A DNA stretch of 13,144 bases from a virus (IMGVR_UViG_2537561709_000009), one strand, 5' to 3'. Counted from the stretch's first letter, positions 4,003-13,144 are shown. The notes: generated by a model from the letters alone, not told the origin. Program-made: numbers and translations.

Positions 4003-4204
4003 GTTAAGCATCCACAGGCTGGTATCTGCAACCGATTATAACGGATGCTTAACGTAATGCGTGAAGTATGGACATATTTTATCAATTAGTGTTTTTTGCC
4101 GTTTCATAATGTTTCAGATTGTTCATTATATTTTTGATTATAAACAGATTTGTGATTTTCCTTGTTCCAGCTTGTTTCACGTTGTAGCCCTTTGTGCAAC
4201 GATC

Positions 4205-4228
4205 GGTGTAGTTAATGGTGTAGTTAAT
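4205..4228 (+). repeat. Perfect tandem direct repeat GGTGTAGTTAAT x2 abutting the integrase start
   Basis: Units at 4205-4216 and 4217-4228 are identical; a related GTTGTAG lies at about 4181-4187. The repeat ends 1-2 nt before the int GTG/ATG. Confidence 0.6.
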
Positions 4229-4229
4229 T

Positions 4230-5480
4230 GTGATGACCGGAATCAAAATTATGAGCAGAGCACTTAACAAACTGAGCGATACACAGCTGAGGAAAATCAA
4301 CGGCACACCCGCCCAAAAAACAGCCTTTCTTAATGACGGTGGAAACCTGAGCGTCAGGCATTCAACCAGTGGCCTTTTAACCTGGTATTTCACTTACAGG
4401 GCCGGAACGGGAAGGGGGGCACCACCGGAACGCATTAAGCTGGGAAATTATCCTGATCTGAGCCTGAAATCAGCCAGGGAAAAAGCCGCCCAGTGTCGCG
4501 CATGGCTGGCAGAGGGGAAAAATCCACGTCATGAGCTTAATTACACCGTACAGGAAGCGTTAAAGCCGGTAACGGTTGGCGATGCGCTCACCTACTGGCT
4601 TGAGTCGTACGCAAAGGAAAACCGCGTGGATTATGCCGCCCTGAAAAAGCGCCTTAATAATCACGTAATACAGCACATTGGTGCTATGCCGCTGGATAAA
4701 TGCGAGCTACGGCACTGGCTGGCCTGTTTTGACCAGGTGGCAAAGCGAACGCCTGTTACTGCCGGATTCTTGCTACAGACGTGCAAACAGGCGCTTAAGT
4801 TCTGCCGGAGGCGGCGCTATGCAATCAGCAACGTTCTTGATGATATGAGTGTGGCGGACGTTGGGAAAAAACCGGATATAAGCGAGCGTGTCTTAAGCAC
4901 CAAAGAACTGGGCGAATTATTGCAGGCACTGGACAAAAAAATATTCTCCCCCTACTACATCGCGTTAATCCGCCTCCTGATTGTGTTCGGATGCCGGACG
5001 GTAGAACTGAGGTTATCGGAGATCAGCGAGTGGGATTTTACCGAAATGCTCTGGACCGTTCCGAAGGAGCACAGCAAAACGAAGGTAGCCATATTCCGGC
5101 CTATACCGGAAGCAATACTGCCGTTCATCACGCAGCTGGTGGAGCAGAACAGGCACACGGGCTTATTGCTGGGGGAAGTGAAACAGGAGGCCAGCGTATC
5201 GCAGTATGGAAGATTAGCGCACAGGAGGCTTAATCACCCTCACTGGTCACTGCATGACATCCGGCGCACCTTTACAACCATGCTGAACGATTTAGGCGTT
5301 GATCCGCATGTCGTGGAGCAGCTTACAGGCCACCAGATGCCAGGAATGCAGCGAGTTTATAATCATTCCCGTTATCTGGATGCGAAACGCAATGCGCTGG
5401 ATATGTGGACGGAGCGGTTAGGGATACTGGCGGGAACACATGAAAACGTAACCACGCTACCAGTAGCCAGAAGAAAATAA
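4230..5480 (+). CDS. int: Tyrosine recombinase / phage integrase (P4/CP4-57-like, with N-terminal arm-DNA-binding-type domain)
   Basis: 416-aa ORF. N-terminus has the LSDTQLRK...GGNLSVR...WYFTYR pattern typical of the arm-binding domain of P4-like integrases. C-terminal catalytic region has R...HxxRxT (HDIRRT) and a terminal tyrosine region (RVYNHSRY). Start is ambiguous: GTG 4230, ATG 4233 or ATG 4251; none has a strong Shine-Dalgarno. Confidence 0.9.
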   Translation: MMTGIKIMSRALNKLSDTQLRKINGTPAQKTAFLNDGGNLSVRHSTSGLLTWYFTYRAGTGRGAPPERIKLGNYPDLSLKSAREKAAQCRAWLAEGKNPRHELNYTVQEALKPVTVGDALTYWLESYAKENRVDYAALKKRLNNHVIQHIGAMPLDKCELRHWLACFDQVAKRTPVTAGFLLQTCKQALKFCRRRRYAISNVLDDMSVADVGKKPDISERVLSTKELGELLQALDKKIFSPYYIALIRLLIVFGCRTVELRLSEISEWDFTEMLWTVPKEHSKTKVAIFRPIPEAILPFITQLVEQNRHTGLLLGEVKQEASVSQYGRLAHRRLNHPHWSLHDIRRTFTTMLNDLGVDPHVVEQLTGHQMPGMQRVYNHSRYLDAKRNALDMWTERLGILAGTHENVTTLPVARRK

Positions 5481-5497
5481 TTTTTTTCGTGTTTTTT

Positions 5498-5513
5498 CAG
5501 TATGCGCATACTG
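5498..5513. repeat. 16-bp perfect palindrome CAGTATGCGCATACTG downstream of int
   Basis: Verified self-complementary; lies 18 nt after the int stop, following a T-rich tract. Likely a dimeric protein-binding site or stem-loop. Confidence 0.6.
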
Positions 5514-5526
5514 GATATGCGAACAG

Positions 5527-5575
5527 ATACAACGTGCAACAATGAGCAACAATGTGGAACAACTACGAACAAGAG
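5527..5575 (+). repeat. Helically phased tandem decamers (consensus GCAACAATG-like), about five units
   Basis: GCAACAATGA (5536-5545), GCAACAATGT (5546-5555), GGAACAACTA (5556-5565), CGAACAAGAG (5566-5575), plus a degenerate unit at 5527-5536; AACA recurs with an exact 10-bp period. Confidence 0.55.
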
Positions 5576-10959: not shown

Positions 10960-11154
10960 ATGCCAGAGAACAACACCAGAAAGCCGGATAAAAGTGCCAC
11001 GGTACACATAGACGCCGGAACTATGGAGAAGATCGAACGCTATCAGCAGTTCATCAAAGATAATCACCCGGGTATGCCAGTGCCCACGAAAGGACAAATC
11101 ACACGCAGCGCGGTTGAATACTGGTACAGGGCAACGTTAGGAGCCTGGCTATGA
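10960..11154 (+). CDS. Hypothetical protein (64 aa), coupled to the capsid gene
   Basis: ATG 10960 with GGAGG 7 nt upstream (track ORF 10927-11154 trimmed). Stop overlaps the capsid ATG (ATGA at 11151-11154). Confidence 0.55.
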   Translation: MPENNTRKPDKSATVHIDAGTMEKIERYQQFIKDNHPGMPVPTKGQITRSAVEYWYRATLGAWL

Positions 11155-13040
11155 AAACATGGTTTTCCATTAAGGCTATGGCAGATGTTGTACATGTGCG
11201 CATTTATGACGAGATCGGCGGGTACGGTGTAAAGGCATCGGCACTTACTGACGAGATCAACGCGTGCGGTAATGTGTCTGAAATCCATCTTCGCATCCAT
11301 TCATCTGGTGGCGACATCTTTGAAGGGCTGGCTATCTATAACGCCCTGAAAAATCATCCGGCAAAGAAAATTGTACACATTGAAGGCATGGCGGCTTCTA
11401 TGGCCTCGTTTATTGCCATGTGTGGCGATCACATCGTTATGCCTGAAAACGCGATGATGATGATACATGCCCCCCGTGGTGTTACTGCCGGAGTGTCGGG
11501 CGACGTTCGCCGCTTTGCTGACCTGATGGACAAGCTGGGCGACACGATGGCGGAAACCTACGCCGGAAGAACGGGCAGGAGCAAACAGGAAATCACCGCC
11601 ATGATGGAGGCGGAAACCTGGATGGATGGCAATGAGTGTAAGGCTAACGGCTTCGCAGATGAGGTTATAGCCGCGATTACAGCAATGGCCCGAATTGAAT
11701 CAAAACGAATCGGAGATTTTTCAAATATGCCGGAAAAAATTAAAAGCATGATCAGCCAGAAAACTACCAGTGGCGAACAGGAACGACTTAACGGCATCCG
11801 TGAATTGTTTGGCACGTTCAACGGAAGATATAACGACCTGGCTATAAGTTGTCTTGCTGATTCAGAATGTAGCGTTGAGAATGCACGCGAACGCCTTTTA
11901 CTCGCTATGGGTAAAGAATCAACGCCAACAAACAAAACCACCCCCGCAAATCTTTACTACGCGTACACGGATAACGGCAACATAACCGGCGATGCAATGC
12001 GCCAGGGGCTTAATGCGCGTCTTGGTCACGAACGGGCCGAACGCGGTAATCCTTACGCCATGATGAGCCTTTTCGATATGGCACAGGCATCATTAACCCA
12101 TCGTGGTATAAGCACGGGCAGCTACGGCACACGCTCGCAGATAGTAAACGCGGCATTCACCCACAGCAGCAGCGATTTTACCGATATTCTTGCTGGTGGC
12201 GCTGAAAAATCAGTGCTTGCAGGCTGGGAGCACAGCGGCGAAACATTCCGCCAGTGGACGAAAAAAGGTTCCCTTTCAAACTTCCGGGAAGCCCGCCGCG
12301 TTGGTATGAATGGCTTCTCAACGTTAAACAAAGTGCCGGAAGGGGCAGAATATAAATACATCACCACCAGCGATCGCGGTGAACCCATCGCGCTGGCTAC
12401 TTACGGGAATATTTTCAGCATTACCCGCCAGGCGATAATCAATGATGACCTTGATCAGTTATCAACGGTGCCAATGGCTATGGGCCGTGCTGCATCAAGA
12501 ACGGTGGGAAATCTGGTTAATCTGGTGCTTACAGGCAACGTAAAACTTTCTGACGGAATAGCGCTGTTTGACAAAAAACACAGCAACCTGATTGAAGCAG
12601 GACTGACAACACAGGGACTTAGTGCAGCACGTCACCTGATGCGCACACAGAAGGACAAAAATGGCGAAGTGCTGAATATTGCGCCTAAATTCCTTTTAGT
12701 TCCGGCAGCACTGGAAGATCGCGCGTTGCAGATGATTAACTCAACCGCACCTTTCGGGGCTGATAAAAACAGCGGGATCTTTAACCCGTATCACAAGCTA
12801 CTTGATATCATCGTCGATCCCCGCCTTGATGATATCAGCGAAAAACAATGGTACATGCTTTCCGCACAGGGAACGGACACAATCGAGGTGGCTTATCTTG
12901 ATGGCAGTGACGAGCCTTACCTTGAACAGCAGGAAGGTTTTATCGTTGACGGCGTGGCCTGGAAAGTCCGTATTGATGCAGGTGTGGCAGCTCTGGATTA
13001 TCGCGGTATGGTCAAATCAGGCGGGACAGATTCACTATGA
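11151..13040 (+). CDS. Prohead protease (ClpP/S14-like) fused to HK97-fold major capsid protein
   Basis: 629 aa. N-terminal ~180 aa aligns by eye to ClpP (IHSSGGDIFEGLAIYN, GMAASMASFIAMCGDH, MMMIHAPRG versus INSPGGVITAGMSIYD, GQAASMGAFLL, RVMIHQPLGG), with catalytic Ser and His positions conserved. The C-terminal ~400 aa looks like a phage major capsid protein, but that rests on length and general composition only. AGGAG Shine-Dalgarno 7 nt upstream. Confidence 0.88.
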   Translation: MKTWFSIKAMADVVHVRIYDEIGGYGVKASALTDEINACGNVSEIHLRIHSSGGDIFEGLAIYNALKNHPAKKIVHIEGMAASMASFIAMCGDHIVMPENAMMMIHAPRGVTAGVSGDVRRFADLMDKLGDTMAETYAGRTGRSKQEITAMMEAETWMDGNECKANGFADEVIAAITAMARIESKRIGDFSNMPEKIKSMISQKTTSGEQERLNGIRELFGTFNGRYNDLAISCLADSECSVENARERLLLAMGKESTPTNKTTPANLYYAYTDNGNITGDAMRQGLNARLGHERAERGNPYAMMSLFDMAQASLTHRGISTGSYGTRSQIVNAAFTHSSSDFTDILAGGAEKSVLAGWEHSGETFRQWTKKGSLSNFREARRVGMNGFSTLNKVPEGAEYKYITTSDRGEPIALATYGNIFSITRQAIINDDLDQLSTVPMAMGRAASRTVGNLVNLVLTGNVKLSDGIALFDKKHSNLIEAGLTTQGLSAARHLMRTQKDKNGEVLNIAPKFLLVPAALEDRALQMINSTAPFGADKNSGIFNPYHKLLDIIVDPRLDDISEKQWYMLSAQGTDTIEVAYLDGSDEPYLEQQEGFIVDGVAWKVRIDAGVAALDYRGMVKSGGTDSL

Positions 13041-13044
13041 CAAC

Positions 13045-13068
13045 AAGGCGGCACCAGCCGCCTTTTTT
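13045..13068 (+). terminator. Intrinsic terminator after the capsid gene
   Basis: AAGGCGGC / ACCA / GCCGCCTT stem-loop followed by TTTTTT, 4 nt after the stop. Confidence 0.7.
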
Positions 13069-13073
13069 GCGGG

Positions 13074-13110
13074 TCCTCCTGGTGGGGTGGGCCTGAACAC
13101 GGGGCGGGAC
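13074..13110 (+). repeat. G-rich conserved motif, copy 2 (TCCTCCTGGTGGGGTGGGCCTGAACACGGGGCGGGAC)
   Basis: Matches copy 1 at about 31 of 35 positions with two single-base indels; same placement after a terminator. Confidence 0.6.
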
Positions 13111-13144
13111 TGCTGTATCAAGGGTATGTTGAAACGTCTAACGT

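Follow-up and report, generated by a model that had tools for sequence, protein, structure and literature searches.

The viral contig IMGVR_UViG_2537561709_000009, analysed as a stretch of 13,144 nucleotides (the window), carries an element next to the chromosomal gene roxA that comprises an integrase, an AlpA-family regulator, small overlapping genes, a RepA-like helicase, a single-strand DNA-binding protein (SSB) and a fused gene for a prohead protease and a major capsid protein. The original prediction, made from the sequence alone, had listed these genes, and domain matches bore the list out. Profile searches of the window also agreed with the prediction in finding no terminase or portal gene ahead of the protease-capsid fusion. 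We conclude, with a probability of about 85%, that the window represents a classical Gram-negative phage-inducible chromosomal island (PICI) of the EcCICFT073 family, inserted at the 3′ end of phoQ and equipped with a captured helper-type capsid gene, on what is most likely a chimeric contig.

The island and its attachment site

The element follows a chromosomal flank (65-4069) that comprises the truncated potB', potA (220-1356, − strand), pepT (1564-2832, + strand) and roxA (2881-4011, − strand) and shows no mismatch to Escherichia coli O157:H7 strain 3-5-1. Comparison with the attB of strain K-12 and the attR of related islands placed the attL core, GGACATATTTTATCA, at 4070-4084 (+ strand). 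The corresponding sequences are GGGCATATTTATTCA for attB in K-12, which overlaps the 3′ end of phoQ, and GGACATATTTATTCA for attR in the relatives, giving the core consensus GG(G/A)CATATTT(A/T)(T/A)TCA. The attL core is common to the CFT073, O91 and O157 islands. Insertion next to roxA, as originally proposed, thus holds in that the element adjoins this gene, while the actual insertion point could be refined to the phoQ 3′ end. The empty site was defined by comparison with K-12, where it is the 75-bp roxA-phoQ spacer. In K-12, the attB core (locus L003, 4309-4323) overlaps the last phoQ codons, and integration swaps the 3′ end of the gene for island-borne sequence. A 12-nt motif, GGTGTAGTTAAT, occurs twice in succession at 4205-4228 (+ strand) and again inside attR of complete relatives (L001, L002 and L006). 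The doubled motif probably represents putative arm-type binding sites of the integrase. A doubled DNA motif, which may differ from GGTGTAGTTAAT, has been called unique to the helper-embedded PICIs (HE-PICIs; PMC10111431). The attR itself lies outside the window, as PICI sequence gives way to flgG at 13109. No tRNA gene was found in the window, which excluded an island at a tRNA site.

The integrase gene (4251-5480, + strand; the longest open reading frame (ORF) starts from a GTG at 4230) encodes a tyrosine integrase with Arm-DNA-bind_3 and Phage_integrase domains that is 97% identical to the integrase of EcCICFT073. It stands at the left end, followed by alpA (5845-6033, + strand; PF05930, E = 5e-17), and most genes point rightward, as is typical of PICIs. 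Two small ORFs are oriented leftward (6303-6491 and 6534-6707, − strand), and leftward ORFs occupy this position in relatives too. The divergent small repressor of the original prediction is borne out as to these two ORFs; as to function, the 57-aa product of 6534-6707 is a candidate repressor with a weak Arc-like ribbon-helix-helix match (phrog_228, E = 1.5e-6). It had no detectable similarity to the YlcI/YnfO protein of CFT073. A 314-aa ORF on the + strand (6091-7035) runs antisense to the leftward ORFs at 6303-6707, which have PHROG matches, and the same + strand stretch is given as an Icd-like pseudogene in the PGAP annotation of O157:H7. An Icd-like ORF, so named by PGAP, lies at 6838-7035 (+ strand) and precedes three overlapping small ORFs (7028-7240, 7230-7694 and 7687-7920, + strand) that belong to PHROGs without known function. 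PADLOC revealed no defence system among the small ORFs, and NCBIfam added nothing more. A scan of the whole window against Rfam at the gathering threshold gave no match, so no immunity RNA of the C4/isrK type was detected.

The replication genes begin with a DUF4222 protein (7926-8225, + strand), which is conserved directly upstream of the replication gene in this PICI family. The replication initiator (8222-9622, + strand) is a helicase with an AAA_25 domain (E = 2e-43), "RepA family" being its PGAP name. Immediately 3′ of the helicase gene, six AAAAGYGAGR repeats, one of them inverted, flank an AT-rich stretch and make up an iteron-type replication origin (9621-9811). These iterons, which the original prediction had noticed, proved to be real: the six are confined to the 190 bp that follow the stop codon of the helicase gene, and the motif occurs seven times in the whole window against 0.79 occurrences expected, a number reached in none of 200 shuffled sequences. 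The origin is followed by a small conserved ORF upstream of ssb (9823-10074, + strand; phrog_1231, function unknown) and by ssb itself (10071-10493, + strand), which contains a switch point between two source sequences at 10089-10107. In three IMG/VR loci (L047, L048 and L052), a helicase 100% identical to that of the window occurs together with a fusion gene of 95-98% identity. Since portal and terL matches lie nearby in these loci, the helicase module of the window is also found in PICIs inside or next to prophages.

Gram-negative PICIs are organised into an integration zone, a zone of variable small genes, a replication zone (primase or helicase plus SSB, with the origin) and a late zone of captured helper late genes (PMC10111431, PMC6092414), and the layout of the window matches this four-zone order. 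As in other islands of this kind, the element has its own initiator with an iteron origin 3′ of it, a specific chromosomal att site and, as seen in its complete relatives, flanking direct repeats, a size within the range of ~10-20 kb, and a few captured late genes with no tail, lysis or full head module. Its closest counterpart is EcCICFT073, which corresponds to O-island 51 of O157:H7 (PMC6092414). Both share the roxA-phoQ site, the att core and the doubled arm motif, in addition to the nearly identical integrase. Their gene order agrees as well: int, alpA, leftward small ORFs, Icd-like and other small ORFs, DUF4222, replication gene, origin, small ORF, SSB, and a late zone with a capsid gene. 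The two elements differ in the replication gene, where EcCICFT073 has a D5-type primase in place of the RepA helicase, and in the late zone. The latter contains a lambda E-like capsid gene, a D-like decoration gene, RppA and a lambda-type cos in EcCICFT073, as opposed to a tripartite protease-capsid gene, a cos region of the mEp460/Gifsy-2 type and no Rpp gene in the window. The element also resembles P4 in its size of ~11 kb, its integrase, AlpA-family gene and Icd-like small genes, and its predicted cos packaging by a helper, but differs from it in that Pfam and PHROG searches returned no match to sid, psu, delta or the alpha-type primase-helicase, and the Rfam scan detected no CI/C4-type RNA.

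The protease-capsid fusion gene and its relatives

The fusion gene (11151-13040, + strand) encodes a tripartite protein of 629 aa in which a ClpP-like prohead protease (residues 42-174; CLP_protease, E = 5e-32) and an HK97-fold major capsid protein (residues 331-623; Phage_capsid_4, E = 2e-54) are joined by a scaffold-like middle. Its start is overlapped by an ORF of 64 aa (10960-11154, + strand; phrog_4934, function unknown; given also as 64-75 aa), which did not resemble the 68-aa ORF that precedes the capsid gene of EcCICFT073. Along its entire length, the protein aligns collinearly with the polyproteins of several Stx-converting phages, CP-1639, mEp460 and cdtI at ~51% identity, and no phage record exceeded 60% identity. 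Effantin et al. (2010) are said to have described a tripartite capsid gene in Gifsy-2, and the fusion has this same architecture. The Ser and His motifs of the ClpP protease are kept (GMAASMAS and MMIHAP).

Complete relatives of the element, at the same and at other sites, are 10.5-11.5 kb long (10,964-11,467 bp where measured with their att sites) and have no tail or lysis genes. An island of E. coli O91:H21 strain FWSEC0008 (10,964 bp, 92% nucleotide identity) occupies the same site and carries the RepA helicase, the SSB and the fusion gene, and strain 89-3156 (L012) has the same architecture at a different chromosomal site. We used such relatives to look at the rightward continuation that the window does not hold, as the original prediction had advised. 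They contain no terminase, portal, connector, tail or lysis genes, and the right end of the O91:H21 island consists of the fusion gene, one 282-bp ORF, attR and phoQ. The last gene before attR in the EcCICFT073, O157 and O91 islands and in the HE-PICI is an ORF of 93 aa that lies beyond the PICI end of the window (L004, 16805-17086; L006, 13374-13655; L001, 22026-22307) and is 78% identical between distant islands. It had no Pfam match, and a sequence search of the PDB returned only chance-level matches to acyl carrier protein. Its identification as an Rpp was rejected, RppA being the 144-aa product of c1503.

We extended the comparison to 80 IMG/VR loci that carry the fusion gene at 58-100% identity. 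The genes fell into two lineages, which share 89-100% and 58-63% identity, respectively, with the query. At most loci, the fusion gene adjoins a PICI primase or a RepA helicase plus SSB. Phage-like genes were its neighbours only where the island is enclosed by a prophage, and portal and terL matches came exclusively from long contigs of this kind. The second lineage (62% identical) resides in islands of this type at cspD-clpS and other sites, and there a TerS-like DUF1441 gene and the 93-aa ORF just described lie downstream of the fusion gene. It is widespread (L017-L020, e.g., L017, 10001-12940) and encodes fusion proteins of 637-638 aa. The DUF1441 protein is 48% identical to the small terminase of the helper prophage, which makes it a candidate for redirecting the packaging of this helper type in the manner of Rpp or TerS.

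The protease and the capsid protein, combined in a single gene shortly before the window stops, had led the original prediction to a satellite of the capsid-forming (cf-PICI) type, i.e., one that builds its own small capsids, packages itself and takes only tails from a helper, with portal and terminase genes expected beyond the window. Indeed, the element shares with the prototype EcCIEDL933 the int-alpA-replication backbone and a satellite protease and major capsid protein distant from the phage copies. However, the gene set that defines a cf-PICI comprises capsid, protease, portal, head-tail connectors, HNH, TerS and TerL (bioRxiv 10.1101/2022.09.08.507074), and cf-PICIs measure ~15 kb. Capsid and protease are present in the fused gene, whereas no portal or connector gene was found in the window or inside complete relatives, and HNH, TerS and TerL are absent from this lineage, the 62% lineage having only the DUF1441 TerS-like gene. 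Five of the seven defining genes are thus lacking. In all complete relatives, the capsid gene and the 93-aa ORF, sometimes together with the DUF1441 gene, come last before the chromosome or a split prophage gene resumes, and the copy of a helper cos region described below implies packaging by a helper terminase. The cf-PICI label was therefore abandoned, and a capsid-forming satellite appears highly improbable. Nor did the underlying premise survive that classical PICIs lack a capsid gene: one has been reported for 21 of the 29 reference Gram-negative PICIs (PMC10111431), EcCICFT073 has genes for a capsid and a head-decoration protein (PMC6092414), and SaPIbov5 carries the capsid homologue Ccm.

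That the capsid gene is the remnant of a larger lambdoid prophage, now small or decayed, is about as implausible. The gene family is typical of lambdoid prophages, and O157:H7 annotations historically called the island a defective prophage (PMC6092414). Nevertheless, the att sites are precise, the size of ~11 kb is constant across strains, a PICI-type backbone is present in most of the 80 surveyed loci, and the gene lineages are found only in such islands, with no phage copy above 60% identity. The element lacks the complete head, tail and lysis modules and the lambdoid regulation of a temperate prophage. Against a degraded prophage fragment, as considered in the original prediction, the ORF is intact, and a dN/dS of 0.12 between the window and O91 copies (30 substitutions) suggests that it evolves under purifying selection. 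The assignment to phage satellites of the integrase-AlpA-led kind rather than to prophages, which had been part of the prediction, was accordingly upheld by the size and gene content of the relatives.

Packaging regions and the possible role of the capsid gene

The intergenic region between ssb and the 64-75-aa ORF comprises 434 bp and contains, after a terminator hairpin (10510-10532), a cos-like region (10526-10686, + strand) with the cosN-like core CACGGGGCGGAGGGGCGCGG. In lambdoid phages, cos is located in the interval between the lysis genes and terS. The cos-like region is homologous to this interval in a helper-type prophage (84% over 95 nt) and to the stretch directly upstream of terS in phage mEp460 (77% over 156 nt); the position of the cos nick could not be read from the mEp460 record, which opens at terS and not at a cohesive end. 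The presence of a helper-type packaging signal was thus recognised by homology only. A second terminator hairpin and the start of a second cos-like copy occupy 13044-13108 (+ strand), the copy beginning at 13063 and being cut off at 13108. Intact relatives have this second copy after the capsid gene, with 86% identity over 205 nt to the cos region of the O157 prophage. In these islands (L004, 16565-16770; L001, 21786-21990), the two copies flank the capsid gene and differ in their right-hand, cosB-like parts, the upstream copy resembling mEp460 and the downstream copy resembling the embedding prophage of O157. The pair may serve as a dual signal for packaging by two types of helper.

Comparison with the lambda-type islands revealed a corresponding pairing. 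The roxA-phoQ island of O157:H7 has a lambda-type capsid gene, and its alignment shows lambda cos sequence; EcCICFT073 combines this capsid type with RppA and conserved cosN/cosQ. Judged from these sequences, capsid type and cos type appear to travel together and to match a helper type, which fits the capture of helper late DNA and piracy of the cos site, not autonomous capsid formation.

For EcCICFT073, it has been shown that a helper induces the island through alpA, that the island is transferred at high frequency and that it interferes with the helper (PMC6092414, PMC6739421), and the steps established there can be transferred to the window by homology. A lambdoid helper phage would switch on alpA, upon which AlpA and the integrase would excise the island. 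The RepA-type helicase and the SSB of the island would then replicate it from the iteron origin just downstream of the initiator gene. The helper terminase would recognise and cut the cos site of the island, as would be expected from the copy of the helper cos region that the element carries, and the island would be packaged in heads and tails made by the helper. The island polyprotein would probably join or replace helper subunits on the helper portal, with the possible outcome of a Ccm-like change in head size, of better compatibility or of no essential effect, as found for the capsid gene of EcCICFT073.

In lambdoid phages, the fusion gene is located between the portal gene and a cement or decoration gene within a full head-tail operon, whereas it stands alone in this element. 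It is not a self-sufficient capsid factory. By analogy with EcCICFT073, it is probably an accessory gene matching the helper, its product would most likely co-assemble on the helper portal, and it could conceivably alter capsid size. P4, with a genome of 11.6 kb, is packaged in T=4 heads. A stronger version of the size effect is that the PICI polyprotein, placed on the helper portal, redirects assembly to small, P4-sized heads that fit one island of ~11 kb and exclude the helper genome. The island is indeed close to P4 in length. A precedent exists in SaPIbov5, a cos-packaged satellite with a homologue of the helper major capsid protein (PMC8569155, PMC6092414), Ccm, which redirects capsid size and shape (PMC8569155, PMC5052747). 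The long retention of the fusion gene, its purifying selection and its divergence from every phage copy point in the same direction, as does a structural difference: around residue 208, between the protease and the scaffold-like middle, the PICI protein is without a Pro/Ala/Val-rich linker of ~35 residues that is present in the helper-prophage copy. On the other hand, Ccm is not fused to a protease, and size redirection has been shown for Ccm and for no capsid gene of a Gram-negative PICI. In EcCICFT073, the capsid and decoration genes are dispensable for transfer and interference, and the packaged DNA is phage-sized (PMC6092414). Moreover, the helper has a cement or decoration gene, and none lies beside the fusion gene here. 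We therefore regard a size redirector of this type as unlikely, although it is the least unlikely of the alternatives considered.

Composition of the contig

The base-by-base comparison with O157:H7 strain 3-5-1 showed that the window is a mosaic of four pieces with three junctions (~64/65, 10089-10107 and 13108/13109). Over bases 65-10107, the window and the roxA-phoQ island agree at every position; over bases 10089-13108, the window differs at a single position from another PICI of this genome, which is embedded in the terL gene of a lambdoid prophage. The sequence passes from one parental PICI to the other within a block of 19 identical nucleotides (10089-10107) at the start of ssb, a gene that is ~90% identical between them; the amino-acid sequence of the hybrid SSB is the same as that of the HE-PICI. 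In O157:H7, the two parents lie ~1.3 Mb apart in opposite orientation. The outer pieces are foreign to the element. At the left edge, a fragment of a paralogous ABC-transporter permease (1-64) is joined to potB at the short common motif ggcgatcagcg; bases 1-73 match a different O157:H7 permease gene at 98.6%, and the potB match begins at base 65. At the right edge, PICI sequence ends at 13108 and is joined, at an imperfect similarity of ~20 nt, to a fragment of flgG (13109-13144, 36/36 identical). The break between PICI and flgG was also considered as a cos cut and dismissed, since by analogy with lambda it lies ~7 nt away from the expected nick. Two elements of the original prediction had to be revised in this light. 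The right end is not a plain truncation at the edge of the window, given that PICI sequence stops at 13108 and is followed by 36 nt of flgG, and the window does not contain one contiguous element.

The right-hand donor belongs to the HE-PICIs (Tommasini, Mageeney and Williams 2023, PMC10111431). Window bases 10089-13108, with the SSB, the cos-like region, the 64-aa ORF and the fusion gene, are one base off the HE-PICI in the terL gene of the O157:H7 prophage. The host prophage has its own fusion capsid gene, whose product is 51% identical to and collinear with that of the window, and a matching cos region. The left half differs from the HE-PICI in being chromosomal at phoQ, not inserted in a prophage late gene, and in its integrase and replication gene. 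We thus do not place the window among the HE-PICIs, as its attL is chromosomal and only the right-hand 3 kb match.

Two explanations can account for the hybrid. Homeologous recombination within ssb between two resident PICIs of an O157:H7-like strain could have produced a new roxA-site island with a protease-capsid late module. The crossover position in an identity block of a ~90% identical gene would suit this event, module shuffling is common in the PICI family, and natural islands combining a RepA helicase with the fusion gene exist, some of them at the same site. However, the hybrid was absent from all complete E. coli genomes searched (n = 5,426): a 161-nt segment spanning the ssb junction was intact in none of them, the best full-length match reaching 98.1%. 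The opposite orientation of the parents and the distance between them also speak against this origin, and the two further short-similarity junctions to unrelated distant loci (the permease paralogue and flgG) fit an artefact better than three independent rearrangements. A genuine recombinant is therefore rather doubtful. Because three short-similarity junctions link four distant loci within 13 kb, the sequence comparison indicates that the window is most likely a chimeric contig, and arguments from the gene order of this 13-kb sequence are unsafe.

Several points weigh against our overall assignment to an EcCICFT073-type island with a captured helper gene on a chimeric contig. Natural recombinants carrying the RepA helicase and this fusion gene exist, so that the ssb junction, taken alone, could be genuine. 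As no sequenced phage copy is more than 60% identical, the fusion gene is not a recent capture, and it may have gained a satellite-specific function. The dN/dS value rests on just 30 substitutions, the Arc-like repressor assignment is weak, and the identity of the helper, induction, cos cleavage and the role of the capsid gene are all matters that we infer.

Capsid genes in Gram-negative PICIs

The kind of element found here is already known: both parental islands are standard in O157:H7 genomes and belong to published satellite families. The role of the capsid gene is accordingly not a question special to this window but a property of the whole family of Gram-negative PICIs. We consider it a speculative and rather improbable idea that the PICI-resident protease-scaffold-capsid genes are satellite-specific lineages which build the satellite's own, possibly small, shell on the helper portal, to be filled by the helper terminase by means of the mimicked cos. 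If this were true, such islands would be intermediate between classical PICIs, which take entire capsids from the helper, and cf-PICIs, which take tails alone. A helper-type capsid gene persists under selection in many Gram-negative PICIs, although it proved dispensable in the one case tested, and the fusion lineages would provide good material for testing what it does.

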